64,000 bases of DNA from Bacteroidota bacterium (GCA_043810345.1 JBDROF010000018.1:97651-161650), one strand, 5' to 3'; positions 47,706-64,000 are shown, numbered from the stretch's first letter. Program-made: numbers and translations. Notes: generated by a model not told the origin, from the letters alone.

Positions 47706-47711
47706 TCATAC

Positions 47712-48467: not shown

Positions 48468-48471
48468 CATA

Positions 48472-49146: not shown

Positions 49147-49150
49147 GATT

Positions 49151-50350
49151 TTGGCTTTACGTAAACATACAACCCCTGCCACTTCAAATCCCGCTTCGCG
49201 GATCCCGAATCCCGCATCCGGCATCCGGCATCCGGTATCTGTAAAGGTTGTCGGAAGCGGCTCATTTCTTCCTGGGGCAGCCATTTTACCCGACCAGGTC
49301 GATTATTTTCTGGGGGAATTGATGGAAGCGCCGGAAAAGATCCGGAAATGGATGAAACGAATCCGGATCCTGATGAAGGAGTTGCTGGAGGCAGAATATT
49401 ATCATTTTGCCTTGGATCCCATTACACGACAATTTACGGAGGATAATGTAACAATGTCGGTGAAAGCAGCCCGGGAAGCCATCACGGATGCCGGAATGAA
49501 ACCGGAGGAGATCGAACTGATCGTTTACGGCAGCGCACACCAGGACCAGATGCCAACTGCTTCCGTAAGGATCCAAGAAGCGCTGGGGATTGAACGATGC
49601 GGGGAGCTCTCAGTGCATGCGAATTGCACCTCTGCCTACAAAGCGCTTCTGCTCGCCCACGAACTTCTTCAATCAGGCCGGTACCGGAACGCCCTCGTGG
49701 TCTCGTCGAGCATGTCATCGTCGGAGCTGGTAGCAGAATACTACAATCAATCCCTGGTTAAAAAAGAGGAGCTGTTTTTACGTTATTTCCTCAGCGACGG
49801 CGCTTCGGCCCTGGTGTTGAAAGCAGAACCTGAACGGAGTGGCAATGGGTTATACCTGGATTACACCTATATGGAATCAACCGGAGGGAAAAAACCGTCG
49901 GCCATGGGAAACAGACGCCCGGCTTACTGGATGAATCCGAAAGAGGAGTATGAGAAAGGTTGTCACCACCTGGCCCAGATGTTCCAGGAGGAGCTTCGGG
50001 CCAACTTCCACGAAGCTGACGGCTCGGTCTTCCTGAATGGCTTGAAACGGATGCTGGCCCTGCATCCGGTCGATCCCCGGCATATCCGTTTTTTCCAGGT
50101 GAACTTCCCGTCAAAACATATTTCGGAACTGGTGATGGATGAATGCAGTGAACTGGGGATCGACCGGAACACGCTCTACTCGAAGATGGCCACGATGGGC
50201 TATATCGGTCCGCCCATGGCCTTTCTCTGTCTCGACCGGATCCGGAAAGAAGAGCAATTGAACACGGGTGATATAATCCTTAGCTTTGTAACTGAGGTCA
50301 GTAAATTCATGCAGGCGGGATATGTGCTGAGGTACGAAGTCAGACGTTAG
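49151..50350 (+). CDS. KAS III (FabH)-like thiolase-fold condensing enzyme, divergent active-site context
   Basis: 399 aa. FabH-like N-terminus VKVVGSGSFLPG, Cys context VHANCTSAYKALLLAHELLQSG. The usual HQAN and GNTSAAS blocks are replaced by FQVNFPSKH and MGYIGPPM. The only in-frame start is TTG 49151, which makes the repeat at 49186-49240 part of the CDS. Confidence 0.75.
   Translation: MALRKHTTPATSNPASRIPNPASGIRHPVSVKVVGSGSFLPGAAILPDQVDYFLGELMEAPEKIRKWMKRIRILMKELLEAEYYHFALDPITRQFTEDNVTMSVKAAREAITDAGMKPEEIELIVYGSAHQDQMPTASVRIQEALGIERCGELSVHANCTSAYKALLLAHELLQSGRYRNALVVSSSMSSSELVAEYYNQSLVKKEELFLRYFLSDGASALVLKAEPERSGNGLYLDYTYMESTGGKKPSAMGNRRPAYWMNPKEEYEKGCHHLAQMFQEELRANFHEADGSVFLNGLKRMLALHPVDPRHIRFFQVNFPSKHISELVMDECSELGIDRNTLYSKMATMGYIGPPMAFLCLDRIRKEEQLNTGDIILSFVTEVSKFMQAGYVLRYEVRR
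49186..49240. repeat. Stutter repeat forming the N-terminal extension of the KAS III-like CDS
   Basis: aaatcccgcttcgcggatcccgaatcccgcatccggcatccggcatccggtatc encodes NPASRIPNPASGIRHPVS. Confidence 0.85.
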
Positions 50351-50436
50351 AATTTAGAACGCAAGTTAAAAGTTAGAACGACGAACTGTTTTCCAAATTT
50401 CCTAATGACTTAATGACCATTGACTAATGACTAACC
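50346..50436. repeat. Intergenic stutter repeats that contain the start codon of rSAM #2
   Basis: gttagaatttagaacgcaagttaaaagttagaacgacgaac and ctaatgacttaatgaccattgactaatgactaac. Confidence 0.8.
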
Positions 50437-52004
50437 CTAAACGATATACGCTGTTTTTACTGAGTCCCCGCCAGCGCTTTATCAATTATCCAGCGCATAT
50501 TTACCTGGCGAAGATGTTCGGAAAGCAGCGGTTTATGGTGCCATTGGCACTTCCTACGGTGGCGGCTCTTACTCCTGACCATTACGACCTCCATATTTAT
50601 GACGAGGAGATTGAGGAGATCCCGGTAGACATCCTGCCAGATATCGTGGGCATCACTACCCTGGCTGCCACTGTCAACCGGGCTTTTGAACTGGGAGACC
50701 ACTTCCGGAAACTGGGTGCCATCGTGATCTATGGTGGACCTTACGCCTCCTTTCAGGTTGACAAAGCACTGGAACATGGTGATGCAGTAGTGGTTGGAGA
50801 GGCCGAAGAACAATGGGAAAAGCTGCTGGAGGATTTTGAGCAAAATAATTTGCAACAGGTCTATGCGGCAAACTCCTATGTCGACTACCTTACCCAGAAA
50901 CCGCCCCGCTGGGATCTGGTCAATATGAAACGGATCTTCCAGGTAGCGATACAGGTCTCCCGGGGGTGTCCCTTCAACTGCGATTTCTGCATAGTAACCA
51001 AAATCTTCGGACGGAGGATGCGATACCGCGAAATCGATAATGTGGTGGAGGAAATCAACGCAGCTCCTTCGAAGTACTTCTTCTTCGTAGACGATAACCT
51101 CACCATCAATAAACGCTATGCCAGAGAGTTGATGGAGGCAATAAAACCGTTGAAGATCTCCTGGGGTTGCATGTGCAGCATCGATGTGGCGAAAGATGAC
51201 GAACTGCTCAAAGCGATGGCGGATGCGGGATGTTTCAATATCCTCATCGGGTTTGAGTCCCTCAACCCGGATAGCCTGGATGCCTCCAACAAGCATCATA
51301 ACCGGCGTGGGACCATCTATGAGGAGGCCATTCAGAAGATCCATTCCCATGGGATCCATATTAACGCCAGCTTTGTGGTGGGTTTCGACAACGACGACCT
51401 GGAGGAATTCGACCGGATCTACGACTTTACATTGAAACACAGCCTTCCCAATGTCAACCTTCACCTATTGAACGCACCACCGGGATCGGAGATCTATAAG
51501 CGATACCAGGAGGAGGGCCGGCTACTGAATTGTAATCCTGAACTTGGGGTGGGCCATTTCCCTACCATCCACTATATGAATATGTCGCAGATTGAACTGT
51601 TCAATAAATATATGACCACTATCGAACGTTTCTACTCCTTTGACACCGTTCTACGGAAAGCGAAAAACCTGTTCAGCAACGGAAACTTCACAAGATCCGG
51701 TGGCGATATTGCAGCATGGCTGAAAGTTCGTCTCACCTGGATCACGGTTAAGGCATTTCTTATTACAAGAGATACCAGGAAACGGGAGCTCTTTTTTTAT
51801 ATCATCGGCCTGATCCGCTCCAACAAAATTGCGATCGACAAAGGCCTGGGATTCCTGCTAACCATGCTGGGATATCACCGGCATATTGAAGCGCATAAAA
51901 GAAACATGGAAGATTACCGGAACATAGTGAGGGAACAGGACCGGGGTGCGTGGAAAGATCACTCCTCCCCAACCCCTCCCCAAAAAGGGAGGGGAAACCA
52001 GTAA
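50427..52004 (+). CDS. B12-binding-domain radical SAM enzyme (#2), long C-terminal extension
   Basis: 525 aa. B12-type N-terminus (LALPTVAALTP..DIVGITTLAATVNRAFELGDHFRKLGAIVIYGGPYAS..VVVGEAE). Radical SAM motif VSRGCPFNCDFCIV. The C-terminal about 150 aa may be DUF4070-like (recollection only). Confidence 0.88.
   Translation: MTNPKRYTLFLLSPRQRFINYPAHIYLAKMFGKQRFMVPLALPTVAALTPDHYDLHIYDEEIEEIPVDILPDIVGITTLAATVNRAFELGDHFRKLGAIVIYGGPYASFQVDKALEHGDAVVVGEAEEQWEKLLEDFEQNNLQQVYAANSYVDYLTQKPPRWDLVNMKRIFQVAIQVSRGCPFNCDFCIVTKIFGRRMRYREIDNVVEEINAAPSKYFFFVDDNLTINKRYARELMEAIKPLKISWGCMCSIDVAKDDELLKAMADAGCFNILIGFESLNPDSLDASNKHHNRRGTIYEEAIQKIHSHGIHINASFVVGFDNDDLEEFDRIYDFTLKHSLPNVNLHLLNAPPGSEIYKRYQEEGRLLNCNPELGVGHFPTIHYMNMSQIELFNKYMTTIERFYSFDTVLRKAKNLFSNGNFTRSGGDIAAWLKVRLTWITVKAFLITRDTRKRELFFYIIGLIRSNKIAIDKGLGFLLTMLGYHRHIEAHKRNMEDYRNIVREQDRGAWKDHSSPTPPQKGRGNQ
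51961..51998. repeat. GC hairpin repeat forming the C-terminal tail of rSAM #2
   Basis: actcctccccaacccctccccaaaaagggaggggaaac has an 8-bp stem (cccctccc/gggagggg). It encodes ..SSPTPPQKGRGNQ*. Confidence 0.85.
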
Positions 52005-52009
52005 AAGGA

Positions 52010-53098
52010 ATGATCAACATCCATCATCAGGCATCAGGCAGCATTCATCCGGTATCAAGCATCCAGACTGTTGGCGTCATCGGTGAAGGAAAAATGGGGT
52101 CCAGCATCTTCTATTCCCTGCTCCATTCGCCCTATTCCCTGCGCTGGATCGGAAGCCCGGATGCCGATGTAGAAAAACTTCAGCAGCACCTGGAAAAAAA
52201 AATCCACCGCCATCTTAAGAGCGGCATCGTGGGTCAGGATGAGCATGATCGCCTGCTTCTGAGAACGATCATCTCCTCCGATGTGAGTCATACCGCAAAT
52301 TGCGACCTGGTGATCGAAGCGATCCCGGAAGAGTTAACGTTGAAGCGACAGCTTTTTGCGGATTTGGACAGGATCACTAAATCATCCTGTATACTGGCCA
52401 CAAACTCATCCTCTTTCAATCCGTCTCAGCTCTTTCTGGATTCGAAAAGAGACGAACGGATTATCGGAATGCACTACTTTTTCCCCGTACCGTTAAAGGA
52501 GACCGTGGAGCTGATTTTTCCTGAGAAAACATCCACCAAAGTGCGTTCAACTACTGAAGCCTTTTTACGTCAGACAGGTAAACAAATACTTCTTCTGAAT
52601 GAATCTAATAGCTTTATTTTAAATAAATTATTCCTTGATATTCAGAATGAAACTTATCGAATTGTTGAACAGGGAATGGCTACAGTCAAGCAGATTGACA
52701 CGTTGATCAAAGAGCAACTTTTTCCTGTTGGAGTGTTTGATTTCATGGATAACGTTGGGATTGAAACCATGTTGGCGGCGGTCAGAAATTATACATCGGA
52801 CTACCCGCACAAAGATTATTACCAAAACCTGATCAACAAACTCCAGGCGCTTGTGGATGCGGGTAAGTTTGGGCTGAAATCAGGAGAGGGTTTTTTTCGT
52901 TATACGGAAGGGAAGATGAGCGATTCATCGTCACCTGAACCCCTCCGGCCAGAAGTTGCCCGTGAGATCACCAACCACCTCAGGTTTACCTATCTGAATG
53001 CTGCCAAGCGGTTCACCATGCAGTCGGGATGTACGATTGATGAGATGAACCAGGCGATCAGGGAGTACTTAGGCCTCGAAAAGGGTCCCTTTGAATAA
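52010..53098 (+). CDS. 3-hydroxyacyl-CoA dehydrogenase (NAD-binding, HBD/FadB-type)
   Basis: 362 aa from ATG 52010. Motifs: VGVIGEGKMGSSI (GxGxxG), DLVIEAIPEEL..KRQLF, ILATNSSS, IGMHYFFPVP. The first ~18 codons derive from the stutter repeat at 52013-52066. Confidence 0.88.
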   Translation: MINIHHQASGSIHPVSSIQTVGVIGEGKMGSSIFYSLLHSPYSLRWIGSPDADVEKLQQHLEKKIHRHLKSGIVGQDEHDRLLLRTIISSDVSHTANCDLVIEAIPEELTLKRQLFADLDRITKSSCILATNSSSFNPSQLFLDSKRDERIIGMHYFFPVPLKETVELIFPEKTSTKVRSTTEAFLRQTGKQILLLNESNSFILNKLFLDIQNETYRIVEQGMATVKQIDTLIKEQLFPVGVFDFMDNVGIETMLAAVRNYTSDYPHKDYYQNLINKLQALVDAGKFGLKSGEGFFRYTEGKMSDSSSPEPLRPEVAREITNHLRFTYLNAAKRFTMQSGCTIDEMNQAIREYLGLEKGPFE

Positions 53099-53163
53099 TT
53101 TTCAAATCCCATCCGTACTTATCCGATTTCTTTGCGATCTTTGTGATATCAAACCACTACATC

Positions 53164-53538
53164 ATGAAAAAATCAGGTATCATACTGGTTGCATTAGTGG
53201 GGACATTTGTGATCTTTGTCTCTTTTATCAGGCCAGCAGGTCCACCCATTTCAGACCCGCCGAAAAACATTCCTGACTCGGTTTGGGCCGTCATTAAAAC
53301 ATCCTGTCTCGAATGTCATGTCAACGATGGCAATAGCCTGGCTAAAGCCAAGCTCAATTTCGATAAGTGGGACGAATATTCCCCGGAAAAGCAGTTTGTT
53401 AAAGCTCAGGATATCTGTGAAGAGGTCCGGAAAGGAACAATGCCTCCCTCCAAATTTCGAAAAAACAATCCCGATGCCGTTCCTTCCACAGGAGCGACAA
53501 CCCGAATCTGCAAGTGGGTGAATCAACTCGAAAAATAG
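53164..53538 (+). CDS. Haem-binding-domain protein (CxxCH), membrane-anchored or secreted
   Basis: 124 aa from ATG 53164. N-terminal helix GIILVALVGTFVIFVSF. CLECHVNDGNSLAKAKLNFDKWDEY....VRKGTMPP matches my recollection of the Haem_bd domain. Confidence 0.7.
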   Translation: MKKSGIILVALVGTFVIFVSFIRPAGPPISDPPKNIPDSVWAVIKTSCLECHVNDGNSLAKAKLNFDKWDEYSPEKQFVKAQDICEEVRKGTMPPSKFRKNNPDAVPSTGATTRICKWVNQLEK

Positions 53539-53545
53539 TTACTAA

Positions 53546-54760
53546 ATGGCTGGAAAAGTGGTTGTTACCGGAATGGGGATCGTCTCCTCGCTAGGTCTTG
53601 ACCTGGAAACCAACTGGTCGAACCTGGTAACTGGCAAAAGTGGGATCGGGAACATTACCTTGTTTGATGCTTCAGAAAACCAGACTCGGATAGCGGGAGA
53701 AGTACCTGCAGCTTTTGAAGACCATTACAAAGATTACATCAAGAAACGGGCTGCCGGTCAGATGACCCGTGTGACCAGGATGTGCATGGTGGCTGCAAAA
53801 GATGCAGTGAACCATGCCGGGGTAGATTTTGAACAGATGGATAAGACCCGGTGTTCTGTGATTATGGGGGTTGTAAATACCGGGAACTCAAGCGTGGAGA
53901 GTGATACCAATCCTCAGAATACCGTATTCAAAAGCATGACGAATTCCATGTCGGCCTGGGTATCTCTGGATTACCAGCTTATGGGGCCCAATTATGCCAT
54001 CAATACGGCATGTGCCTCCTCAGCTTATGCACTGGCTTCGGGGTATGACCTGATCCGGAACAACCAGGCTGATCTGGTCATCGTAGGGGGAGCCGACAGC
54101 ATCATCAACAAAGAAGAGATCGAAGGATTTAACGCTCTTTATGCTTTATCGGTACAAAATGATCCACCTGAAAAGGCCAGCAAACCCTTTTCGTTAGATC
54201 GCGACGGATTCGTCATCGGTGAAGGGGCTGGTGTGATTATCCTGGAATCTGAAAAGAGTGCCTCCAGACATCATGCTACCATCTTTGCCGAACTGGCCGG
54301 TTACGGTTTGAGCAGTGAAGGGTACAACATCATGGCTCCGATGAAGGATGGAGAAGGGATGGCATTCACCATGAACAAAGCGCTCAAATCCACTGGTATT
54401 GCCCTGGATGAAGTAGACTACATCAATGCTCACGGGACCTCAACCGAACTCAACGACAGGTATGAAACACTGGCAATCAAGAGGACCTTTGGTGAACGAG
54501 CCGCGAAAATTCCTGTATCATCCTCCAAATCCATGCTGGGACATACCATCGGAGCCGCTGGGACTATAGAGGGAATCATCACCATTCTTTCCATTTATCA
54601 CGATACGATCACGCCCACAATAAACCTGGATCATCCTGATCCGGATCTGGACCTGGACTATGTACCTCATTCCTCCAGAAAGCAAGGGGTTCGTGTCGCT
54701 TTGTCAAACTCATTTGGCTTCGGGGGCCACAATGCTACTCTCGTTTTCAGAAAGTATTAA
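53546..54760 (+). CDS. Beta-ketoacyl-ACP synthase II (FabF-like), the most canonical KS of the cluster
   Basis: 404 aa. Motifs: INTACASSAYALASG, INAHGTSTELND, SKSMLGHTIGAAGTIE, SNSFGFGGHNATLVF. Confidence 0.92.
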   Translation: MAGKVVVTGMGIVSSLGLDLETNWSNLVTGKSGIGNITLFDASENQTRIAGEVPAAFEDHYKDYIKKRAAGQMTRVTRMCMVAAKDAVNHAGVDFEQMDKTRCSVIMGVVNTGNSSVESDTNPQNTVFKSMTNSMSAWVSLDYQLMGPNYAINTACASSAYALASGYDLIRNNQADLVIVGGADSIINKEEIEGFNALYALSVQNDPPEKASKPFSLDRDGFVIGEGAGVIILESEKSASRHHATIFAELAGYGLSSEGYNIMAPMKDGEGMAFTMNKALKSTGIALDEVDYINAHGTSTELNDRYETLAIKRTFGERAAKIPVSSSKSMLGHTIGAAGTIEGIITILSIYHDTITPTINLDHPDPDLDLDYVPHSSRKQGVRVALSNSFGFGGHNATLVFRKY

Positions 54761-54790
54761 CAGGAATACAGTTTAAATAGAAAAAAGAAG

Positions 54791-54798
54791 TATTTTTG
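54791..54798 (+). promoter_or_regulatory. Candidate internal -7 box (TAnnTTTG) upstream of ACP-3
   Basis: tatttttg lies 28 nt upstream of the ATG at 54827. Confidence 0.4.
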
Positions 54799-54826
54799 CT
54801 TCTGATTCTTTGAAAAAAAAGAGTGT

Positions 54827-55132
54827 ATGGCACAGATTAGAGAAAATACAAGAGAAGAGGTGCAAGAGGTTGTATATGAATTCTTTGCCGATGAATGTGA
54901 GGTAGACGTTTCGGAGATCTCAGATCAGACAAATATCATCAAAGACCTGGATGGAGATTCGCTCATGTTCCTGGAACTTATCGAAATCTTCAAAAAGAAA
55001 TATTCACTTGAGATTGAGCTGAAAACCATCGGTAAATATGCTGTCAAACACCCGGTTGAGACAATCGGGCAGTTAATTGACATGCAGATGCTTATCATTG
55101 AACATGAGAACCGCATCCTGGAATTAGTTTAA
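54827..55132 (+). CDS. Acyl carrier protein (ACP-3)
   Basis: 101 aa. IIKDLDGDSLMFLELIEIF. Confidence 0.88.
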   Translation: MAQIRENTREEVQEVVYEFFADECEVDVSEISDQTNIIKDLDGDSLMFLELIEIFKKKYSLEIELKTIGKYAVKHPVETIGQLIDMQMLIIEHENRILELV

Positions 55133-55147
55133 AAACCCTGACATTCC

Positions 55148-56053
55148 TTGCCTGATTGTACAGCCGCATTTGTTTTTCCTGCCTTTGTCAGGGATTATGA
55201 CGACGATAAGTCTCCGCAAATTGATGGTTTCAGTAAACACTTTCACCATCTTTTGGCAGAAGCATCCAGGGTGGTTGATCCCGACCTGACCTTTTTCCAT
55301 CCCGAGAACCAGAATTTTCTGGACCATGAGTTACGGACTCAGTATATTGCTTTTGTTTATGGCTGTGCAATCTCAGATATTGTTCAGGGAAGAGGGATTC
55401 ACCCGAAACTCCTCTGCGGATACAGCATGGGGATTTATGCCGCTTTGGTTCACGGGGGAGCTCTCTCCTTCGAGAATGGTCTTTTGTTAATCCGCAATGC
55501 TTTTCAGGAGATCTCTTATACAACGATGACTGACCGGTTTGGTATGGCCGGGATCATTGGACTTACCGAACCTGACATTCGGAACATTCTTCAATCCCTC
55601 CCAGGGGTAAAAGTTACAAACCAAAACAGCTCCTACTCATTTGTGCTTTCGGGACGTCAGCAGGATCTGGAGAGAGCGCTGAAGGCCGCCCGGGAAGAGG
55701 GAGCTTTTCATGCCAGGATGCTCAGTGTAACTGTCCCTTACCATTCCTATTTGTTAAAATCGGCCGCACTACAATTTGCTAAATTCGTTTATAGCCTGGA
55801 TATCCGTACACTCCAGATTCCATTGATATCGGTGCTCAACCGGGAAACCCTGAGTTCACCTGAAGATATTAAAACGGAACTTGTTGAAAACCTTTACAAA
55901 CATTTTAACTGGCACTCAACCCAGCTAAAGATGATCGACATGGGCATCAACCTGTTTGTGGAGTGTGGACCCGGAAGTAGTCTGAAGAAGAACTCACGGT
56001 TTATTGAAGGAAATTACCGGTTTTTGTCCATGGATGAGATCCTCACGCATTAA
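55148..56053 (+). CDS. Acyltransferase of the FabD (malonyl-CoA:ACP transacylase) fold, atypical motifs
   Basis: 301 aa with a TTG start. AFVFPAF replaces FVFPGQGSQ. The nucleophile elbow is GYSMG (FabD has GHSLG). LSVTVPYHS. Confidence 0.75.
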   Translation: MPDCTAAFVFPAFVRDYDDDKSPQIDGFSKHFHHLLAEASRVVDPDLTFFHPENQNFLDHELRTQYIAFVYGCAISDIVQGRGIHPKLLCGYSMGIYAALVHGGALSFENGLLLIRNAFQEISYTTMTDRFGMAGIIGLTEPDIRNILQSLPGVKVTNQNSSYSFVLSGRQQDLERALKAAREEGAFHARMLSVTVPYHSYLLKSAALQFAKFVYSLDIRTLQIPLISVLNRETLSSPEDIKTELVENLYKHFNWHSTQLKMIDMGINLFVECGPGSSLKKNSRFIEGNYRFLSMDEILTH

Positions 56054-56056: not shown

Positions 56057-56749
56057 TCAGTCTACCTTCAGCCTATACCCTACATTGTAAACATTTTCGA
56101 TCACCACACCATTCTTTCCCAAATGTTTCCGCAGACGGGAAACAAAGACATCCAGGCTGCGGCTTGAAAAGAAATGGTTGTGTCCCCAAATTTCAATCAG
56201 GAGCTCGTCTCTCTTCACCACCTTCTCACGGTTTTTCAGCAGGAACGAAAATAATTCCGCTTCTCTGTGGGTTAGCGCATGTTTTTTATCAGCTACGGTA
56301 AGCCAAAGATTGACAGGATCCCAAATCACCCTTTGATTGATCTCATTCACTCTGAATTCTTCATCCGAAAGCTGAACGGCCCGCCGTTTCAGGAATACCT
56401 CGATCTTCAGCACAAGCTCTTCAATGCTAAAGGGTTTTGTGATATAATCATCCCCACCCAGCTTGAGTCCATGAATTTTATCCTCTCTGGCAGAGCGGGC
56501 CGTGACGAAAATAATAGGAACCTGAAGGTCTTGTTCACGAATCTTTTCAGCCAGGGTAAAACCATCCATTTTTGGGAGCATGATATCCAGGATGCAGAGA
56601 TTATACTTGTTCTTCCCAAACTTCTCCAGCGCATCCTTCCCGTTTTCAATTGCGTCAATATCGTATCCCTTCATAGTAAGGTTATCCCTTGTCACGAATG
56701 AGAGCGTCAGGTCATCTTCAACATACAGTATCTTGGGTCGTTTTTTCAT
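56057..56749 (-). CDS. OmpR/PhoB-family response regulator (receiver + winged helix)
   Basis: 230 aa from ATG 56749 (ATGA overlap with the kinase gene). Motifs: ILYVEDD, LCILDIMLPKMDG, TARS..EDK..GL..GGDDYITKPF, GYRL. Confidence 0.9.
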   Translation of the reverse strand: MKKRPKILYVEDDLTLSFVTRDNLTMKGYDIDAIENGKDALEKFGKNKYNLCILDIMLPKMDGFTLAEKIREQDLQVPIIFVTARSAREDKIHGLKLGGDDYITKPFSIEELVLKIEVFLKRRAVQLSDEEFRVNEINQRVIWDPVNLWLTVADKKHALTHREAELFSFLLKNREKVVKRDELLIEIWGHNHFFSSRSLDVFVSRLRKHLGKNGVVIENVYNVGYRLKVD

Positions 56750-58008
56750 CTGGTCATGGATATAACAAAGGAACAACCTTTTGCCGGTTCACTCTTCAGC
56801 GAGATTTTCCATCCGTGTGCTTTACAGGTGTTTCTGACATAGAAAAGACCCAGTCCAAATCCCTTGATATCATGCACGTTTCCTGTGGGGATACGGAAAA
56901 ACTTACGGAATACCTTTTTCTGAAATGAATGAGGGATCCCCGGACCATTATCGCTGATCTTCAGAATAACAGATCTATTTTCACAATAGGTTTCAACAAC
57001 AATTGCGGGATCTTCACCTCCATATTTTGATGCATTATCCAATAGGTTGTAAATGATATTTGACAGGTGTACCGGATCCGCATGGACCTTTCCAACATCA
57101 GCGGCAAGTTTTGTCCTGACCGAAAACACTTTTCCCGAATTGCTCCGGCAGTTTTCCAGCACTGGTATGATCAGCTCATTCAACTCGACATTCTCCCGTT
57201 TCAACTCAAAGCCCGTTTTCTCAATCCGAGCGATATTAAGGACTTTATTTACCAGCATGTTTAACCTGCTGTTTTCTTGTTTTATGATGTTCCCATAGGT
57301 CAGTAACCGTTCCGGATCCTCCAGGATTGAGGGATGAGTGATGACATCTGCCGAAATATTAATGCTGGAAATTGGTGTCTTGAATTCATGCGTCATGTTG
57401 TTGATGAAGTCCTTCTGTAATTCAGAAAATCGTTTCTGCTTGAAAATCACCAGGATAGAGTAGCTGAAGAAGAGTACCAGGGCCAGCAGGATACCAGATA
57501 GGATCAACCAGATTGTCATATTACTGATGACAGTATTCTGGATGGAAGGAAACCGAATCCCGAAATAGTAGAGGTACTCACTGTATTTTGGCAGGTTGGT
57601 GGAGGGGGAAAGAGATTTATTAACACCCTGCCTGGGGATGTAATTCCCGTAGACCATTTTATCGTTATGGCAATCGTAAATGGCATACTCATAATCCACA
57701 TCCAGTCCGATCCGGGCGAACTCACTCTTCAGGTAATACTCCAGGATATTGGCATCGACAACGCTGTTTATGTTGACTACGAAGTAGTTGGAAGAAAGCT
57801 GGTTCACCGGGTTCTCATGGGGAGGAACCGTTTCATTATAGAGATACATTTTATGTGCGACACTGTTCAACCCAATGGAGATCGATTCGTTCACCTGCTT
57901 CTCATTCATATTCCAGGCCTTGAGGAGCCAATAGATCTGAATCGTGAAAATCGCGATGATAGCAACTGTCCCGAACAAGATTACGAACCTTACCTGATTA
58001 TGTTTCAT
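56746..58008 (-). CDS. Sensor histidine kinase (two TM segments, HisKA + HATPase_c)
   Basis: 420 aa from ATG 58008. H-box FINNMTHEFKTPISSI, N box LDNASKYG, DNGPGIP, GFGLGLFYV. Confidence 0.9.
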   Translation of the reverse strand: MKHNQVRFVILFGTVAIIAIFTIQIYWLLKAWNMNEKQVNESISIGLNSVAHKMYLYNETVPPHENPVNQLSSNYFVVNINSVVDANILEYYLKSEFARIGLDVDYEYAIYDCHNDKMVYGNYIPRQGVNKSLSPSTNLPKYSEYLYYFGIRFPSIQNTVISNMTIWLILSGILLALVLFFSYSILVIFKQKRFSELQKDFINNMTHEFKTPISSINISADVITHPSILEDPERLLTYGNIIKQENSRLNMLVNKVLNIARIEKTGFELKRENVELNELIIPVLENCRSNSGKVFSVRTKLAADVGKVHADPVHLSNIIYNLLDNASKYGGEDPAIVVETYCENRSVILKISDNGPGIPHSFQKKVFRKFFRIPTGNVHDIKGFGLGLFYVRNTCKAHGWKISLKSEPAKGCSFVISMTR

Positions 58009-58180
58009 CCGGGCAACCTGAGATGTGGAGTCCAAAAATAGACCAAAATCTGCTTAAAAAACGTAATTTTGCTTTTCATTAACATAATTTTACGTTACGT
58101 TAACATTGTTTTACCTTTTGTTAACATGGATATCGAATAGATGATCGGATTTTTGTACAATCAATTAAAACACAACCGAC

Positions 58181-58651
58181 ATGAAACAAGCAACACTTTT
58201 CACCATCCTCATTCTTTTTGCTGCATCTATTTCATTATTGGCCCAACAAACAACGATCACATACCATAAAGAGGCAGATAAAAAAGAAAAGAAAAATGGC
58301 CCTATAGCCAAATTTGATAAGACTGTAAATGATTTTGGACAAATTGAACAAGGCATCCCGAGAACAGCCGAGTTCACATTGACCAACGAAGGCAATGAAC
58401 CGCTCCTGATCAGCTCCGCGAAAGCCTCCTGCGGTTGCACGAACCTGAAGTATTCAACCGAACCAATTCTCCCAAAAAAGTCCACAACAATCTCAGCTAC
58501 TTACAATGCGGCAGCACCAGGTAATTTTATCAAGACAATCACTGTGCAGACCAACGCTGATACAGATAATGTGATTCTTCAGATCAAAGGAATGGTTGTA
58601 TCGAAAGATGGAACCGTGCCAGAGAAGAAGTACGTGCCAGAGAATAAGTAA
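58181..58651 (+). CDS. DUF1573 domain protein, secreted
   Basis: 156 aa with a signal peptide. FGQIEQGIPRTAEFTLTNEGNEPLLISSAKASCGCT is the classic DUF1573 signature. Confidence 0.85.
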   Translation: MKQATLFTILILFAASISLLAQQTTITYHKEADKKEKKNGPIAKFDKTVNDFGQIEQGIPRTAEFTLTNEGNEPLLISSAKASCGCTNLKYSTEPILPKKSTTISATYNAAAPGNFIKTITVQTNADTDNVILQIKGMVVSKDGTVPEKKYVPENK

Positions 58652-58746
58652 TTGCGTATCATTGCCATCATTTCCAAGATTGCACATGAATTGATTTTTT
58701 ACGTCTTATATCCTTCGTCCTTCGTCGCTCCTCTTTCTTCCTTCCT
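58652..58746. repeat. Stutter repeats between DUF1573 and rSAM #3, extending into the 3' end of the rSAM #3 CDS
   Basis: ttgcgtatcattgccatcatttccaagattgcacatgaattg uses the same words as the 21481-21557 tandem repeat. tccttcgtccttcgtcgctcctctttcttccttcc encodes (minus strand) the C-terminal tail ..RKEERGATKDEG... Confidence 0.8.
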
Positions 58747-60141
58747 GATTCTTAGCAGTGTCCTGAACATGGGTTCGGTTAGCTCTTTCTCTTTTCGCGT
58801 AAGCAGGGCTTTTTGCATCAACTCCGGTGAGGGGGAGCTTTCAGCAGATGGAAGACAATTATGGAATGTATTGCTGATCTCTTTCAGTATCTTACCCAGT
58901 TTCTTTTTCGGTGTATCTGCTGAAAAATAGTAGGGTGATGGGTAAAACAGGGATTCCCCGGGTTGGATCACACCCTCTTTCAGAGCGATTTTCTCCAGGG
59001 GTGTATTCGGATAGATCCGCAAGCCAGCATGCATTAATACCATATCTTCTTCGTTGATATACCGGCCAATAAAATTATGTGTCTGGGCAACCGTTTCAGT
59101 AGTCTCTCCCGGTCCTCCAAAGAGAAAGAACCACATGGTAGGCAAGTCATACATCCTGGTCAAGAGGGCAGTGCGCTTGATATCCCGGAAGGTGAATCCT
59201 TTCTGCAGGTTTTTAATAACGGCCGGGGCCGCACTGTCGGGAGTTACATCAATCTGTATAAAACCTGCCTTGATCATCAGTTTAAAGAGTTCATGACTGG
59301 TGTTCCTGGGATTGATCCCCATGGTCCGGAGCCGGGGACGAATATTTCTCCGGATGATGGCGCGACAGATATCTTCTGCATGACCTGCCGGTTCATTAAA
59401 GGTAGAGTCAATGAAATCGAAGGTGACCTTCCCCAACCGGTCCATGGCCTCTTCAATCTCACGTGCAATATCATCCGGATTACGGACCCTGTAACGTCTC
59501 CCCTCTATGCAGGGATAGGTACAATAGATGCACCGGAGTGCGCAACCCCTTTTGGTCTGGACACTATAGACACCACGCTCTTTGTACGGGGAAAAATCGA
59601 TGTGTCGGTCAATCTCAGAAAAAGGGATGGAGTGAAAGGGAATAAACTTTGTCACTGAAACCGCTCCTGCTTTCCTGTTCTCTTTCCTGAACACCTGCGG
59701 GAGGTGATCCACCGGTTTCTCCTTGTCCAGGCAGCGGAGAACCTCCAGGAACACCTCCTCCCCCTCCCCTGTGATCCCATAATCGGCTTCGGTCATCTCC
59801 ATGATCTCCTGCGGAAAGACACTGAATCCACTACCTCCAAGGATTACGGGAGCCTGGGAAACATGTTGAACCGGGTGGATAAAGTCACGCAGTATATCGC
59901 CGATATAAAACACCGTTCTATCAGCGACGACATCGTCGATGTTTCTGATACTGAATCCAATGTAATCGGGATCAAAGGATTTTACCTGATCCACCAGCGA
60001 TCTCCCTTCATTAAAAACCCCGTCATAGATCTTCACATCATACCAAGGTTCCAGGTACGATGCAAGTAAACAAAGTCCCAAAGGGGGAATAGGATAAGGA
60101 AATTTTTCAATATTTGTATTAACCAGAAGGACTCTCTTCAT
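58699..60141 (-). CDS. B12-binding-domain radical SAM enzyme (#3), paralogue of #1
   Basis: 480 aa from ATG 60141. RVLLVNTN..PYPIPPLGLCLL, FSIRNIDDV, ILGGSGFSVFPQE, GEGEE, QTKRGCALRCIYCTYP, GLRIYPNT. All blocks are collinear with 31951-33312. Confidence 0.88.
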   Translation of the reverse strand: MKRVLLVNTNIEKFPYPIPPLGLCLLASYLEPWYDVKIYDGVFNEGRSLVDQVKSFDPDYIGFSIRNIDDVVADRTVFYIGDILRDFIHPVQHVSQAPVILGGSGFSVFPQEIMEMTEADYGITGEGEEVFLEVLRCLDKEKPVDHLPQVFRKENRKAGAVSVTKFIPFHSIPFSEIDRHIDFSPYKERGVYSVQTKRGCALRCIYCTYPCIEGRRYRVRNPDDIAREIEEAMDRLGKVTFDFIDSTFNEPAGHAEDICRAIIRRNIRPRLRTMGINPRNTSHELFKLMIKAGFIQIDVTPDSAAPAVIKNLQKGFTFRDIKRTALLTRMYDLPTMWFFLFGGPGETTETVAQTHNFIGRYINEEDMVLMHAGLRIYPNTPLEKIALKEGVIQPGESLFYPSPYYFSADTPKKKLGKILKEISNTFHNCLPSAESSPSPELMQKALLTRKEKELTEPMFRTLLRIRKEERGATKDEGYKT

Positions 60142-60156
60142 GAAATAAACAATAAG

Positions 60157-60286
60157 CACCAATATTCAATTATCAAATAACAACTAAATACTAATGTTTT
60201 AATCTGTCAGCAGTGATTGAAATGGTTGGCAATTCGGTCATTGGAATTTGGATATATTTGAAATTTGTTTTTTGCGATTTGTAAAT
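60157..60286. repeat. AT-rich imperfect palindrome between rSAM #4 and rSAM #3 (same family as 35968-36115)
   Basis: The left arm ..caaataacaactaaatactaatg compares with the reverse complement of the right arm, caaatttcaaatatatccaaattccaatg. It shares the cattggaatttgg core. Confidence 0.65.
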
Positions 60287-61627
60287 TTAAATTACATCTG
60301 TCCCCTTCTTGATCAGCCACAGCGCTCCAACCCTTTCATGAAATTCTTCATAGGGAAGGGTTGTCTTTGTAACTGCATTAAAAAAGTTATACTTATTATA
60401 ATCATGATCGATAATCTGCTCCTTGATCTGCCGGTAATAGACGGTGCCCGGCATCGGCGACAAAATCGTATAACCGGCATACACAACCGGGTTGGCAGAG
60501 GAGTAATCAGCTAATGCTTTGAAATCATCTTTCATATAATCAAAAGGAATCACATAGTTTCCTCTGACCATGATCCCATATTCATGAAACACCTCAATCG
60601 CCTTCTGATTATCCCCTGCCGGCGATTCCTTCTTGTACCGCTTCAGCTCCTCGTCACGGAATGATTCAAAACCACAGATCACGACTTTTAACCCTCCCCT
60701 TGCCATCTTTTCAATAATCTCCGGATGGTTTGCCGCCACATCGGCCCGGATATCCATCACCAATGTTTTCTCTATCCGTTCTTCCACGATCCGGGCGAAC
60801 AGCTGATTCATGAACGCCATGTCCACCACGGTGTTGGCATCTGCAAACCGCACTACCGAGTACTCGGGAATGGATTGCAGCTCCTGGATCAGGCTTTCAA
60901 CAGTTCGCTGGTGGTATTTCCCCAGGAACTGCGTCCAGATAGAACAAAAGGTGCACTTATAGGGGCATCCAAGAGAGGTAAATACATAGGTACTTGGATC
61001 AGGGCTATTACCAACTCTATAAGTCGATATCCATTTTGCCAGATGCCCACGATCAATCGCCAGGTAATCCTCACAAGCTGCATCCCAGGGTGATGGCTTT
61101 CCAGCTGTCTTCACCAGGACACCCTGCTGCCTGATCAGAATGCCAGCTACTGATTCCAATGGCATTCCAACCGCTTTGGCCCTCATCAACTCCCTGAATA
61201 TATGTGCACACTGCCCCGGGATGACCACATCAACAGAATGATCTGTGAAATCAAAAGGGAGCAGGGTAGCATGCAATCCCCCGGCGACGGTCAGGATCTC
61301 GGGATTCACCTCCTTGACTACCTTACAGATAGTAACAGAATCGTTGAATTCCGAAGTAATCACAGTTACGCCCACCACATCCGGCCGGTGTCTCTCCACA
61401 AGCTCCTTGACAAGTTTCCGTAATGGCGGAGTGGCCGGATCAAGGTCATACTCCCCTTTTGTGTCAAACAACACTACGTCATGATCCTTCACGGCTGCAG
61501 CGACGGTCAGTAATCCCAGAGGCGGACCGATCAATTTCTTGTGGATGAATCGTTTGGCTGCCTTCGGGGCATATTTTAGAATGTTGTTTTCAGGAGAACG
61601 GGGAGGATTTATCAGGAGGATCTTCAT
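60287..61627 (-). CDS. B12-binding-domain radical SAM enzyme (#4)
   Basis: 446 aa from ATG 61627 (the TTG at 61630 is one codon upstream). B12-type N-terminus (KILLINPP..PPLGLLTVAAAV..VVGVTVITSEF..VAGGLHATL). Radical SAM motif TSLGCPYKCTFCSIW. Confidence 0.88.
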   Translation of the reverse strand: MKILLINPPRSPENNILKYAPKAAKRFIHKKLIGPPLGLLTVAAAVKDHDVVLFDTKGEYDLDPATPPLRKLVKELVERHRPDVVGVTVITSEFNDSVTICKVVKEVNPEILTVAGGLHATLLPFDFTDHSVDVVIPGQCAHIFRELMRAKAVGMPLESVAGILIRQQGVLVKTAGKPSPWDAACEDYLAIDRGHLAKWISTYRVGNSPDPSTYVFTSLGCPYKCTFCSIWTQFLGKYHQRTVESLIQELQSIPEYSVVRFADANTVVDMAFMNQLFARIVEERIEKTLVMDIRADVAANHPEIIEKMARGGLKVVICGFESFRDEELKRYKKESPAGDNQKAIEVFHEYGIMVRGNYVIPFDYMKDDFKALADYSSANPVVYAGYTILSPMPGTVYYRQIKEQIIDHDYNKYNFFNAVTKTTLPYEEFHERVGALWLIKKGTDVI

Positions 61628-61630
61628 CAA

Positions 61631-61653
61631 TTACGAATTACGAATGACGAATT
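61631..61653. repeat. Stutter repeat, same words as 29436-29465
   Basis: ttacgaattacgaatgacgaatt lies directly upstream of the rSAM #4 start. Confidence 0.85.
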
Positions 61654-61726
61654 TTAAAATGTGATGCAGAAAAGATAATCAAAGGTACATATTTAATAGA
61701 CTTAAGGCTGCCTTGTGTGGAATTGC

Positions 61727-61734
61727 TATTTTTG
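61727..61734 (+). promoter_or_regulatory. Candidate -7 box (TAnnTTTG) upstream of the GT2-DUF2062 gene
   Basis: tatttttg lies 51 nt upstream of the ATG at 61786. Confidence 0.4.
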
Positions 61735-61785: not shown

Positions 61786-63081
61786 ATGAAATCGTTGAGG
61801 TGTTGCGTGATCATTCCAACCTACAACAATGCCGGAACGCTGGAGAAGGTGATCCGAGGAGTACAGGAATATTCTGACGACATCATCGTGGTGAACGACG
61901 GGAGCACGGATGAAACACCGGAGATCTTAAACAAGTTGGCAGCTGGCAGTTGGCACTTGGCAGAAGATGGCACGGCACCACGGCACCACGGCACCACTTC
62001 ACCAGTCACCAGTCACCAGTCACCAGTCACCATAATCACCACTTCCACCACATCCACCACATTCACCATTATCACCATCCCCCGCAACACCGGCAAAGGC
62101 TTCGCGCTCCGGCAAGGATTCAACTATGCTATTCAGCAGGGATACCGCTATGCTATCACGATCGACAGCGATGGGCAACATTTTCCGGAAGACATCCCGA
62201 AATTCATTGAAAAAACAGAAGAGGATCCTGATGCCATCGTGATTGGCGCACGGGACATGAAACAGGAGGATGTACCAGGAACCAGCAGTTTCGGACATAA
62301 ATTCTCCATTTTCTGGTTCCGGGTTGAGACCGGTCTGAGGGTCCCTGATGTACAATCGGGGTATCGCCTTTACCCGCTTAAGCGGATCCAAACCATCCGC
62401 CAATTTTACTGTTCCAGGTACGAATTTGAGGTAGAGATCCTTGTCCGGTTAGCCTGGCGGGGGGTGTCTATCCTATCGGTACCGGTGAAGATCTGGTATG
62501 GAGCAGCCGCGGAGCGTGTTTCACATTTCCGGAAAGGGAGGGATTTTGCTCGGACCAGTCTGCTCAATAGCATTCTGGTCTTTGCAGCCCTTCTCTGGGT
62601 CAGACCGTTCCATTTTACCAAAGGTCTTCGGAAAAAAAGCTTCAGGGAGATCATCCGGGAGTATTTCATCAACAGTGAGGATACCAACGCAAAATTGGCC
62701 TGGTCTGTGGTGCTTGGCATCTTCATCGGGGTATCTCCCGTCTGGGGATATCAGATGATTGTTGCTGTAGCACTGGCACATTTTCTCCGATTGCACAAAT
62801 TTGTCGCACTGGTAGCCTCCAACATCAGCATCCCTCCCCTGATCCCCATTATCCTCTTTTGCAGTTATATCACAGGAGGGTTTGTGCTTGGAGCTGAGAA
62901 CACCCATCTGGAATACTCTTCAGGCATTAATTTCCAGTGGATCAAGCAACACCTGATCCAATACATCGTGGGAAGTTTTGTTTTTGGTGCCGTGCTGGCA
63001 CCTGTGACCGGATTCATCACCTATGTTTTGCTGGTCACCTTCAGAAAGAATGTACAACTAAAAGAGATGGAAAAGAACTAA
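61786..63081 (+). CDS. Family 2 glycosyltransferase fused to a C-terminal DUF2062 membrane domain
   Basis: 431 aa from ATG 61786. GT2 motifs: CCVIIPTYNNAGTLEKVI, VVNDGSTDETPEIL, NTGKGFALRQG, TIDSDGQH. The C-terminal AWSVVLGIFIGVSPVWGYQMIVAVALAHFLRLHKFVALVASNISIPP is DUF2062-like. The track start at 61717 is an upstream GTG. Confidence 0.88.
   Translation: MKSLRCCVIIPTYNNAGTLEKVIRGVQEYSDDIIVVNDGSTDETPEILNKLAAGSWHLAEDGTAPRHHGTTSPVTSHQSPVTIITTSTTSTTFTIITIPRNTGKGFALRQGFNYAIQQGYRYAITIDSDGQHFPEDIPKFIEKTEEDPDAIVIGARDMKQEDVPGTSSFGHKFSIFWFRVETGLRVPDVQSGYRLYPLKRIQTIRQFYCSRYEFEVEILVRLAWRGVSILSVPVKIWYGAAAERVSHFRKGRDFARTSLLNSILVFAALLWVRPFHFTKGLRKKSFREIIREYFINSEDTNAKLAWSVVLGIFIGVSPVWGYQMIVAVALAHFLRLHKFVALVASNISIPPLIPIILFCSYITGGFVLGAENTHLEYSSGINFQWIKQHLIQYIVGSFVFGAVLAPVTGFITYVLLVTFRKNVQLKEMEKN
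61936..62069. repeat. Long morphing tandem repeat (about 134 nt) lying in frame inside the GT2 catalytic domain
   Basis: ttggcagctggcagttggcacttggcag..ggcacggcaccacggcaccacggcaccac..ttcaccagtcaccagtcaccagtcaccagtcaccat..aatcaccacttccaccacatccaccacattcaccattatcaccatc encodes LAAGSWHLAEDGTAPRHHGTTSPVTSHQSPVTIITTSTTSTTFTIITI, between DGSTD and NTGKG. Confidence 0.9.
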
Positions 63082-63091: not shown

Positions 63092-64000
63092 ATGGCTGCT
63101 TTCTTCATCCACATTTACCGTTTTTTTCGGAAATACCGCTGGGCGTTCTGGATCTTCATGGCCGTTACAGCCGGTTTTATCATCCTCTTTGCCTCCCAGG
63201 TGAAACTAGAGGAGGATATCTCCAGGATCACCTCAAAAGATGACACTCTCCATCAGGACGAGTATGTGATCCGGAATTTTAAGTTTGCTGAAAAGCTGAT
63301 TGTCCATATCCGTCAGACCGACAGTCTTGACACCCCCTGCCCCGATACGCTGATTGCACTTGCTAAACTGCTTTACGACAGCCTGATGACCCAACTTGAC
63401 TCCTCTTATATTCAATCGGCGTTCCTGAAAACAGAAGATAGCCTGTTACCATTGGTGTTGAGCCTCATCGACAATCATCTTCCCCTCTTCCTGGATGAGG
63501 ATGACTATCTGAGTCTGGACAGCCTTGGTAAGAAGACGGGACTGGAATCCATCGTCAGGAAGAATTACAAGATCCTGGTCTCTCCAGCCAGCATCATGAT
63601 GAAACGGAGACTGGTAGAGGATCCTCTGGGACTCTCCAACATTGCTCTGAGAAAACTACAGAGTCTCCAGGTAGACGATCATTATAGGCTACGGGATGGT
63701 TATATTTTTTCTCAGGACGGCAGGCACCTTCTGTTCTTCATCACTCCGACTAATCCACCAAGTGAAACCAGTAAAAACGCAAAACTGATCCGGACACTGG
63801 ATCAATTGGTCGGTCAGCTGACTGCCATTCCTGAACTATCAGAGACAGCCACAGCTCCCCTGGTCGAGATCGATTATTTCGGATCTGTGGCCGTGGCCGT
63901 TAGCAATGCAAACCAGTTGAAACGAGACATCATCCTAAGCCTTTTTCTGGCGCTGATCCTTATCCTGTTGCTGATCGGATGGTATTTCCGCAATGCAGCT
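63092..64000 (+). CDS. MMPL/RND-superfamily exporter, N-terminal 303 codons (3' end lies outside the window)
   Basis: Not in the ORF track because it is open to the window end. Hand translation from ATG 63092: MAAFFIHIYRFFRKYRWAFWIFMAVTAGFIILFASQVKLEEDISRI... ...FGSVAVAVSNANQLKRDIILSLFLALILILLLIGWYFRNAA. It has an N-terminal TM, a large periplasmic loop, then a TM bundle start, as in MMPL exporters of aryl-polyene clusters. Confidence 0.75.
   Translation, partial: MAAFFIHIYRFFRKYRWAFWIFMAVTAGFIILFASQVKLEEDISRITSKDDTLHQDEYVIRNFKFAEKLIVHIRQTDSLDTPCPDTLIALAKLLYDSLMTQLDSSYIQSAFLKTEDSLLPLVLSLIDNHLPLFLDEDDYLSLDSLGKKTGLESIVRKNYKILVSPASIMMKRRLVEDPLGLSNIALRKLQSLQVDDHYRLRDGYIFSQDGRHLLFFITPTNPPSETSKNAKLIRTLDQLVGQLTAIPELSETATAPLVEIDYFGSVAVAVSNANQLKRDIILSLFLALILILLLIGWYFRNAA

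Follow-up and report, generated by a model that had tools for sequence, protein, structure and literature searches.

A 64,000-nt stretch from a Bacteroidota bacterium (GCA_043810345.1, JBDROF010000018.1:97651-161650; hereafter, the window) carries a lipid biosynthesis cluster with 4 genes for radical S-adenosylmethionine (rSAM) enzymes containing a B12 (cobalamin)-binding domain, numbered rSAM#1 to rSAM#4. We focused on rSAM#4 and rSAM#3, which lie in tandem on the minus strand, divergent from the gene for a family 2 glycosyltransferase-like protein (GT2-DUF2062) and an MMPL-type exporter (Table 1). Both open reading frames (ORFs) are intact at the coordinates originally predicted, and their ATG starts give proteins of the same lengths as the database homologs; a 100%-identical NCBI protein, P0121, is present in the Bacteroidota metagenome-assembled genome (MAG) GCA_043824395.1. 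Both products pass the Pfam cutoffs for the B12-binding domain (PF02310; rSAM#3, 49.6 bits; rSAM#4, 56.4 bits; cutoff 32.1) and the Radical_SAM domain (PF04055; 70 and 55 bits, respectively). The cysteines of the CxxxCxxC motif are invariant, C221/C225/C228 across 22-24 rSAM#4 orthologs and C200/C204/C207 across 19 sequences of the rSAM#3/rSAM#1 family. Judged by these domains and this motif, rSAM#3 and rSAM#4 are predicted class B (cobalamin-type) enzymes, and the orthologs of rSAM#4, with a mean column identity of 76-80%, are kept under strong constraint.

The proteins share an N-terminal Rossmann B12 domain and a CxxxCxxC radical SAM barrel with TsrM (6wte), BzaD, HpnR, BchE, OxsB, TokK, CysS, and MgmA. 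The AlphaFold model of rSAM#4 (predicted local distance difference test [pLDDT] score of 76) matches the solved cobalamin-dependent enzymes TsrM, OxsB, MgmA, AprD4, TokK, and CysS with E values of 1e-19 to 1e-12 and template modeling (TM) scores of 0.55-0.69, TsrM being the top match (E 1e-19, TM 0.67), although the identity to the solved structures is merely 12-16% at the structural level. For rSAM#3, which was compared by sequence only, the best match in the PDB is likewise TsrM (6wte, E 5e-35). The rSAM#4 model would thus confirm the enzyme class, and it gives no pointer to the reaction; the fold was rejected as a discriminator between methylases and non-methylases, since both kinds match the model equally well.

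All-against-all BLASTP comparison of the 4 rSAMs, together with NCBIfam profiles applied at their curated cutoffs, supports the earlier proposal of at least 3 lineages, with rSAM#1 and rSAM#3 forming a TIGR04072-like lineage and rSAM#2 and rSAM#4 each standing alone. The BLASTP results and the differing best NCBIfam matches agree on this point. rSAM#1 and rSAM#3 are 29.5% identical (E 3e-57), rSAM#2 and rSAM#4 22% (E 7e-20), and rSAM#1 and rSAM#4 20% (E 1e-8), and the match between rSAM#3 and rSAM#4 is not significant (E 0.015); as had been supposed, rSAM#4 and rSAM#2 are not close paralogues of rSAM#1 and rSAM#3. Only rSAM#1 passes TIGR04072, "lipid biosynthesis B12-binding/radical SAM protein" (405 bits, cutoff 360), which is not reached by rSAM#3 (308 bits) or rSAM#4 (21.5 bits). 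The next matches of rSAM#3 are BzaD (TIGR04385; 186 bits, cutoff 450) and TsrM (129 bits), and rSAM#3 is best described as a divergent, TIGR04072-like putative paralogue of rSAM#1. The best match of rSAM#4 is HpnR (TIGR04367; 145 bits, cutoff 650), followed by BchE (TIGR02026; 123 bits, cutoff 481), which gives only 60 bits for rSAM#3; rSAM#2 is matched best by BchE (108 bits) and HpnJ. Against the characterized families of cobalamin-dependent rSAMs, all scores fall short of the equivalog cutoffs by a factor of 3 to 5.

Searches with rSAM#4 returned 1468 homologs, the best 120 of which are 68-98% identical. After clustering at 50%, only 3 full-length representatives reach an identity of 40% or more, the remainder staying at or below 36%; because of this drop, rSAM#4 appears to belong to a narrow, Bacteroidales-restricted family without a curated equivalog. 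Transfer of a function from the wider family (30-36% identity; MAGs of Deltaproteobacteria and Eiseniibacteriota) was rejected, the gene contexts there being a hydrolase with a second rSAM, or an RND pump with PagL.

To delineate the genomic context of rSAM#4, we scanned 1 genome per GTDB species, which returned 80 loci (83 confirmed), and compared 34 window proteins with the loci by tblastn. This comparison places 34 loci in lineage A (rSAM#4 identity of 67% or higher) and 46 in lineage B (56-64%). All are from MAGs, nearly all labeled Bacteroidales, Prolixibacteraceae, Lentimicrobiaceae, or Bacteroidota. Two loci with rSAM#4 60-64% identical, like the lineage B loci of Bacteroidales, come from MAGs labeled Chlorobiota and Thiohalospira (L039 and L058), which probably reflects binning contamination rather than transfer. 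The GT2 gene lies divergently and directly upstream of rSAM#4 in 30/30 lineage A loci and in 0/44 of lineage B, in which no GT2/MMPL genes occur within 10 kb (0/44), and rSAM#3 directly follows rSAM#4 in 28/32 and 0/35 loci, respectively. An acyl carrier protein (ACP) gene is found within 6.5 kb of rSAM#4 in 26/26 lineage A loci, as is an acyltransferase (AT) gene (26/26), and in 20/27 of lineage B. The order continues in lineage A with ketosynthase (KS), haem protein, 3-hydroxyacyl-CoA dehydrogenase (3HCDH), rSAM#2, ketoacyl-ACP synthase III (KAS III), 2 enoyl-CoA hydratases (ECH), and thioesterase (TE) genes. In lineage B, rSAM#4 still resides in the same kind of cluster, beside AT-ACP, a pair of KS and chain length factor (CLF) genes, or a TE-ECH-ECH-KASIII-(rSAM#2)-3HCDH-KS block, with a DarH-like gene and an rSAM of a fifth type in the vicinity. 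One lineage B locus has a smaller layout (L042, 11412-19811) comprising genes for an ICMT/PEMT-type methyltransferase, an AT, a phosphopantetheinyl transferase, an ACP, the fifth-type rSAM, a sulfotransferase, and a DarH-like protein; this gives a hint that the product of that lineage is sulfated.

Across approximately 160 related loci, every one that is long enough has rSAM#4 among lipid genes of the fatty acid synthase (FAS) and polyketide synthase (PKS) type. Thus, the 2 rSAMs are conserved cluster members and not chance neighbors, in line with the original prediction. The divergent rSAM/GT2-MMPL unit, which the prediction had emphasized, is invariant in the lineage of the window (47/47 loci) but exists only there, lineage B being without it. 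The most constant partner of rSAM#4 is instead the AT-ACP(-KS-3HCDH-rSAM#2-KASIII-ECH-TE) module. rSAM#3 is absent, with both flanks present, from 6 loci (L007, L022, L027, L031, L102, and L105) and is thus dispensable and sometimes lost, rSAM#4 being always kept. The two-component system and DUF1573 genes that separate AT from rSAM#3 in the window (56057-58651) are limited to the closest relatives, with rSAM#4 at least 77% identical (L003-L008, L078, L086-L089, and L114).

The converse metagenome scan, with the GT2-DUF2062 protein, recovered 80 loci. Wherever GT2 is at least 52% identical and upstream sequence is present, a divergent rSAM#4 is found (17/17). At 40-50% identity (approximately 50 metagenomic loci, marine TARA contigs included), neither rSAM#3 nor rSAM#4 is present, and the genes are co-directional in the order KS-partner-KS/CLF-deacetylase-LolA-(LolB2)-dehydratase (DH)-GT2-MMPL, with GT2 directly after DH; the accessory module from TE to AT is also missing from such canonical DH-GT2-MMPL clusters. 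Retention of the KS, ACP, GT2, and MMPL genes without the 2 rSAMs, which had been put forward as evidence against their belonging together, is accordingly seen in distant relatives, which keep the KS/CLF/LolA/DH/GT2/MMPL genes with a GT2 of 40-50% identity, and not inside the lineage. This distribution suggests that a block of approximately 14 kb, from TE (47301) to rSAM#4 (61627), was inserted between DH and GT2 of an ancestral LolA2-LolB2-DH-GT2-MMPL operon, which would have created the divergent rSAM#4/GT2 promoter region. The last 2 genes of the block, rSAM#3 and rSAM#4, would have been inverted, so that rSAM#4 faces GT2. Homologs of rSAM#1, 46-50% identical, occur in 2 loci (L125, 230-; L163, 1-) upstream of canonical flexirubin-like clusters lacking rSAM#3 and rSAM#4; hence, the distribution of TIGR04072-type rSAMs is wider and independent.

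The distance of 158 nt between the starts of rSAM#4 and GT2-DUF2062 was confirmed, and the suggestion that the 2 transcription units share a regulatory region is supported, for the lineage of the window, by conserved back-to-back −7 promoter boxes. All 36 lineage A loci spanning the divergent gap, look-up loci included, have 1 TAnnTTTG box toward rSAM#4 and 1 toward GT2 (36/36). Both boxes align in 11/11 close relatives, in which they are the main conserved blocks of the divergent region, and in most relatives 59-83 nt separate the GT2-facing box from the GT2 start downstream. No cobalamin riboswitch or other Rfam element was detected within 58-62 kb at E values up to 1. The 5′ leader of rSAM#4 contains a heptamer array that abuts the start codon, with a copy number among close relatives ranging from 0 to about 6 or more. 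The same AATKACG array recurs at 29434-29466, in the gap that follows the FlxB stop and precedes the first KS gene at the start of the cluster, and the pattern ACGAATKACGAAT has 5 matches versus 0.19 expected; these arrays may serve as a common leader or regulatory element or, alternatively, represent a slippage-prone tract.

The 145-nt gap between rSAM#4 and rSAM#3 was likewise confirmed, and the spacer is indeed AT-rich (GC content 0.27 versus 0.48 for the window), although this is unremarkable among intergenic spacers of the cluster (0.26-0.48). By contrast, the palindrome ascribed to it is no better than chance: there are only imperfect inverted repeats with arms 75-81% complementary, the best ungapped inverted-repeat score is 7 versus a shuffle mean of 7.5, and the RNA fold has a z-score of −0.81, 39 of 200 shuffles folding equally well. 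The spacer is not conserved either, its length varying between 0 and 261 nt (median approximately 40) across 34 related loci, and on these grounds a palindrome or terminator was rejected. No TAnnTTTG box is present in the spacer of the window, and only 1 of the 34 related loci has a −7 box there, which is why rSAM#4 and rSAM#3 are probably co-transcribed as a 2-gene operon.

The surrounding cluster was defined by scanning all large ORFs between 28.7 and 64 kb against Pfam and NCBIfam (Table 1). It includes 5 FabF-type KS genes, 2 of them in KS/CLF pairs, 2 ACPs, 2 hotdog-type genes, and 1 thioesterase, as well as 2 enoyl-CoA hydratases, a 3-hydroxyacyl-CoA dehydrogenase, an ABC transporter, an LpxL-type acyltransferase, and a polysaccharide deacetylase. 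Given that the FlxB, DarH, LolA2, and LolB2 equivalogs pass their cutoffs, the host cluster can be classified as a putative type II FAS/PKS-like cluster of the flexirubin/aryl-polyene kind. It is flexirubin-like rather than an established flexirubin cluster, since no ammonia-lyase, CoA ligase/AMP-ligase, or DarA gene was found among the scanned ORFs, and the KAS III falls far short of both the StlD/DarB model (109 bits, cutoff 450) and the DarB model (88 bits, cutoff 550). The content past position 64000 was deduced from relatives that are 82% and 70% identical (L001, 215-8550; L003/L004, 1-8509), in which the region past GT2 encodes an MMPL-acyltransferase-methyltransferase fusion of approximately 1290 aa, a CrtD/CrtI-like FAD desaturase, a C45 autoproteolytic acyltransferase, and a fifth B12-rSAM (approximately 424 aa, without a curated family). 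With the latter encoded downstream of GT2, the full cluster would comprise 5 B12-rSAMs.

Table 1. Features of the window, with those of the rSAM#3-rSAM#4-GT2 region listed first. Scores are in bits.
Feature	Position	Strand	Description
rSAM#3	58699-60141	minus	480 aa, B12-domain radical SAM; ATG at 60141; ORF 58699-60162
Spacer	60142-60286	minus	145 nt, AT-rich; no significant palindrome, no −7 box
rSAM#4	60287-61627	minus	446 aa, B12-domain radical SAM; ATG at 61627; ORF 60287-61630
Heptamer tandem array AATKACG	61629-61653	minus	3.6 copies; rSAM#4 5′ leader, abuts start codon; Tandem Repeats Finder
−7 promoter box TACCTTTG	61680-61687	minus	Bacteroidetes-type; faces rSAM#4, 60 nt from its start codon
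−7 promoter box TATTTTTG	61727-61734	plus	Bacteroidetes-type; faces GT2-DUF2062, 59 nt before ATG
GT2-DUF2062, glycosyltransferase-like	61786-63081	plus	PF00535 and PF09835; export module; ATG at 61786
MMPL/RND-type exporter, N-terminal part	63122-64000	plus	Continues past the window end
Flexirubin/aryl-polyene-like core	28707-47304	plus	FlxB ketoreductase; KS; ACP; LpxL-type acyltransferase; rSAM#1; DarH; ABC transporter; KS and 217-aa partner; 2 KS/CLF pairs; polysaccharide deacetylase; LolA2; LolB2; DH
FlxB reductase	28707-29435	plus	392, cutoff 340
ACP (core)	30757-31029	plus	PF00550; not listed in the original prediction
rSAM#1	31951-33312	plus	Passes TIGR04072
DarH acyltransferase	34166-35185	plus	406, cutoff 300
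LolA2	~45517-46146	plus	220, cutoff 125
LolB2	~46124-46852	plus	81, cutoff 60
DH	46915-47304	plus	Last gene of the core
Accessory module	47301-56053	plus	Pfam and NCBIfam; TE to AT, travels with rSAM#4
TE	47301-47705	plus	Accessory module
ECH	47712-48467	plus	Accessory module
ECH (second)	48472-49146	plus	Accessory module
DarB-like KAS III	49151-50350	plus	Accessory module
rSAM#2	50427-52004	plus	Accessory module
3HCDH	~52010-53098	plus	Accessory module
Haem-binding protein	53143-53538	plus	Accessory module; small, CxxCH
KS	53546-54760	plus	Accessory module
ACP (module)	54827-55132	plus	Accessory module
AT, malonyl-type	55148-56053	plus	Accessory module
Response regulator, OmpR-type	56057-56776	minus	Pfam; insert between AT and rSAM#3
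Histidine kinase	56746-58035	minus	Pfam; insert between AT and rSAM#3
DUF1573	58181-58651	plus	Pfam; insert between AT and rSAM#3
Glycyl-radical enzyme and radical SAM activase	17339-21481		Enzyme PFL-like, 800 aa; upstream of the cluster
tRNA gene	27710-27783		60; ~0.9 kb upstream of the first cluster gene

Lipid clusters of the FAS type with several B12-rSAMs have been known from genomes since 2009, are captured by TIGR04072 and the antiSMASH "ladderane" class, and the latter is now reported from many non-anammox phyla (PMC9902471). A high density of rSAMs in a single lipid cluster, which had been suggested to be unusual, is therefore not new: the "ladderane-type" clusters described in 2009 for Kuenenia and Desulfotalea contain 4 rSAMs, 2 phytoene-desaturase-like enzymes, and many FabF paralogues (PMC2649909). 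The rSAMs of these clusters are uncharacterized, partly because anammox bacteria are not genetically manipulable (PMC10139942). The cluster of the window resembles the type II FAS clusters of Kuenenia stuttgartiensis and Desulfotalea psychrophila in having several FabF-like KS, a dedicated ACP, a polysaccharide deacetylase, several rSAMs, among them the TIGR04072 member rSAM#1 and its sub-threshold paralogue rSAM#3, and a phytoene-desaturase-like FAD enzyme, encoded in relatives right after the point where the window stops. By contrast, its host belongs to the Bacteroidales, not to Planctomycetota or Desulfobacterota, all close relatives being Bacteroidota MAGs rather than anammox planctomycetes; its backbone carries the flexirubin equivalogs FlxB, DarH, LolA2, and LolB2, which set it apart from the ladderane-type clusters as published; and rSAM#4 and rSAM#2 do not belong to TIGR04072.

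The flexirubin, aryl-polyene, and dialkylresorcinol clusters of aerobic Bacteroidota and Proteobacteria, such as those of Chitinophaga pinensis (flx/dar) and Azoarcus (arc/dar) (PMC3992019 and PMC3949708), share with the window the core order KS-partner-KS/CLF-deacetylase-LolA-LolB-DH-GT2-exporter, an LpxL-type acyltransferase, a BtrH-like DarH accompanied by an ABC transporter, and a KAS III belonging to the StlD/DarB family. Unlike in the window, no rSAM is mentioned for these clusters in the excerpts available of the 2 publications, the Azoarcus gene table included. Further differences are that the scanned window ORFs include no tyrosine ammonia-lyase/CoA-ligase, XanB2 starter, or DarA genes, that the DarB-like gene is far below the cutoff, and that ECH, 3HCDH, and haem genes are added along with 4 to 5 B12-rSAMs. 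A search of the accessible literature library returned no publications on rSAM-bearing flexirubin-like clusters of Bacteroidales. Thus, what is particular here is the combination of a flexirubin-type backbone with a modular block containing the DarB-like KAS III and β-oxidation-type enzymes, the uncurated rSAM#4 family, and 4 B12-rSAMs in the window, with a fifth beyond it in relatives.

On balance, and with moderate confidence, we favor the reading that rSAM#4 and rSAM#3 form a 2-gene operon of class B rSAMs tailoring the product of the flexirubin/aryl-polyene-like cluster, likely by C-methylation. The setting would be the type II FAS/PKS lipid cluster of an uncultured anaerobic Bacteroidales host (Prolixibacteraceae-like MAGs), with rSAM#4 as the core enzyme and rSAM#3 as an accessory paralogue of rSAM#1. 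Each would use a [4Fe-4S]/SAM site and cobalamin to functionalize an unactivated carbon of an intermediate, which may be tethered to the ACP of the accessory module, loaded by the neighboring AT, or may already have been released as a lipid. The most likely reaction would be an O2-independent, cobalamin-dependent radical C-methylation. This reaction is favored because most characterized class B radical SAM enzymes are methylases, because the nearest characterized relatives are TsrM and BzaD for rSAM#3 and HpnR, a lipid C-methylase, for rSAM#4, and because TokK and CysS, the structures of which are described among the structural matches as solved with pantetheinylated ligands, show that the class uses pantetheine-linked substrates, providing a precedent for carrier-tethered ones. 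The finished lipid would then enter the GT2/MMPL/LolA2/LolB2 export route, as proposed for flexirubin (PMC3992019).

Several observations weigh against this reading. Every NCBIfam match of rSAM#4 is far under its cutoff, and the wider rSAM#4 family (30-36% identity) sits in unrelated gene contexts. Methylases (TsrM, TokK, MgmA, and CysS), the non-methylating OxsB and BchE, and also AprD4 score similarly by sequence and fold, and the rSAM#4 model has a pLDDT below 50 around residues 183-236, the cluster-binding loop included. The apparent insertion of the module could instead be a deletion in other lineages. Finally, the role of rSAMs in ladderane-type clusters is considered unproven in a 2026 review (PMC13459092).

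The lack of a DarA-like gene among the scanned ORFs, the anaerobic host, and the haem-binding protein within the module would also fit BchE-type oxidases, cyclases, or aromatases, which would replace the O2-dependent steps of flexirubin or dialkylresorcinol synthesis, for instance by aromatizing a cyclohexanedione made by the DarB-like KAS III or by desaturating or hydroxylating the chain. BchE is the second-best match of rSAM#4 and the best match of rSAM#2, and a recent report (PMC13598231) describes its O2-independent six-electron oxidation in vitro. However, these matches are far under the BchE cutoff of 481 bits, the KAS III is only a distant relative of DarB (109 versus 450 bits), which leaves the resorcinol intermediate itself unproven, and the desaturations could be carried out by the CrtD/CrtI-like FAD desaturase found in relatives; we regard such oxidative roles as the main, though less likely, alternative.

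The chance appears slim that the rSAMs act on a polyunsaturated acyl chain to make C-C bonds or close rings (cyclopropane or cyclobutane, "ladderane-like," or tail-to-tail coupling), as proposed for the anammox clusters. rSAM#1 is an equivalog of TIGR04072, "rSAM_ladder_B12," with rSAM#3 as its paralogue, and the many FabF-like KS, the polysaccharide deacetylase, and the phytoene-desaturase-like FAD enzyme of relatives parallel the Kuenenia and Desulfotalea clusters, but ladderanes are known only from anammox Planctomycetota, rSAM#4 gives only 21 bits with TIGR04072, Desulfotalea makes no ladderanes despite its syntenic cluster (PMC2649909), and the link between the cluster type and ladderanes is without experimental support (PMC10139942). 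It is more improbable still that the 2 genes are unrelated housekeeping neighbors for hopanoid C-3 methylation, a YgiQ protein, or synthesis of the B12 lower ligand (BzaD). Such roles are suggested by the automatic JGI labels "hopanoid C-3 methylase" and "YgiQ" on orthologs and by BzaD as the second-best NCBIfam match of rSAM#3, and they were rejected on the curated cutoffs, which are missed widely by the HpnR and BzaD matches given above and by YgiQ (18 bits for rSAM#3, cutoff 462; no match for rSAM#4). No hpn or shc genes are present in the window or related loci and no bza genes near rSAM#3, and the synteny across approximately 160 loci largely refutes this explanation.

We tentatively envisage that the rSAM#4 family might join rSAM#2, rSAM#3, and the fifth rSAM in a hitherto undescribed kind of radical chemistry, acting on a fatty-acyl or polyketide intermediate bound to a carrier and yielding an anaerobic, O2-independent counterpart of the flexirubin-type outer-membrane lipids. 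If this proves true, the cluster would offer the first tractable model of the "ladderane-type" rSAM lipid clusters, a problem long unsolved. The group concerned is widespread, counting no fewer than 83 GTDB species genomes and over 1400 homologous proteins of anaerobic Bacteroidales that keep 4 to 5 B12-rSAMs in a flexirubin-like lipid pathway. Some of the loci are labeled Draconibacterium or Prolixibacteraceae; should a cultivable member exist, the chemistry would be directly testable, and such a test could add to the reactions on acyl lipids known for cobalamin-dependent radical SAM enzymes.

Glycoside hydrolases and peptidases are encoded in the 28 kb upstream of the cluster, together with a glycyl-radical enzyme and its activase, which indicate an anaerobic host. 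A 10-nt repeat, ATTGCACATC, present in 7.5 copies at 21481-21554, includes the final base of the stop codon of the glycyl-radical locus and extends downstream. The tRNA gene, the only Rfam match in the whole window, marks the upstream border of the cluster. Within the core, 2 small ORFs without Pfam matches had not been listed, 33291-33707 (138 aa), which overlaps the stop of rSAM#1, and 33749-34147 (132 aa). Three 21-nt direct repeats, AACATAATTTTACCTTTCGTT (3.2 copies, 58060-58127), lie in the divergent gap of 145 nt that separates the histidine kinase and DUF1573 genes and are candidate binding sites for the neighboring OmpR-type response regulator.

Short tandem arrays with a period of 7 are in excess across the window, with 11 (overlaps collapsed) versus 0.83 ± 0.82 in 30 dinucleotide shuffles, and arrays of all periods number 42 versus 8.8 in shuffles; examples are at 4926-4993, 19785-19815, 36004-36113, 46362-46391, 49187-49239, 50402-50434, 52025-52063, 58711-58744, and 61934-62077. 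Several period-7 arrays fall within ORFs, and, as 7 is not a multiple of 3, their excess is not ordinary codon repetition. In GT2-DUF2062, the 7-, 8-, and 9-nt repeat arrays at 61934-62077 encode a low-complexity insert (…AGSWHLAEDGTAPRHHGTTSPVTSHQSPVTIITTSTTSTTFTIITI…) that divides the PF00535 match into 2 stretches; the protein is 430 aa long in close relatives and 405 aa in a more distant one.

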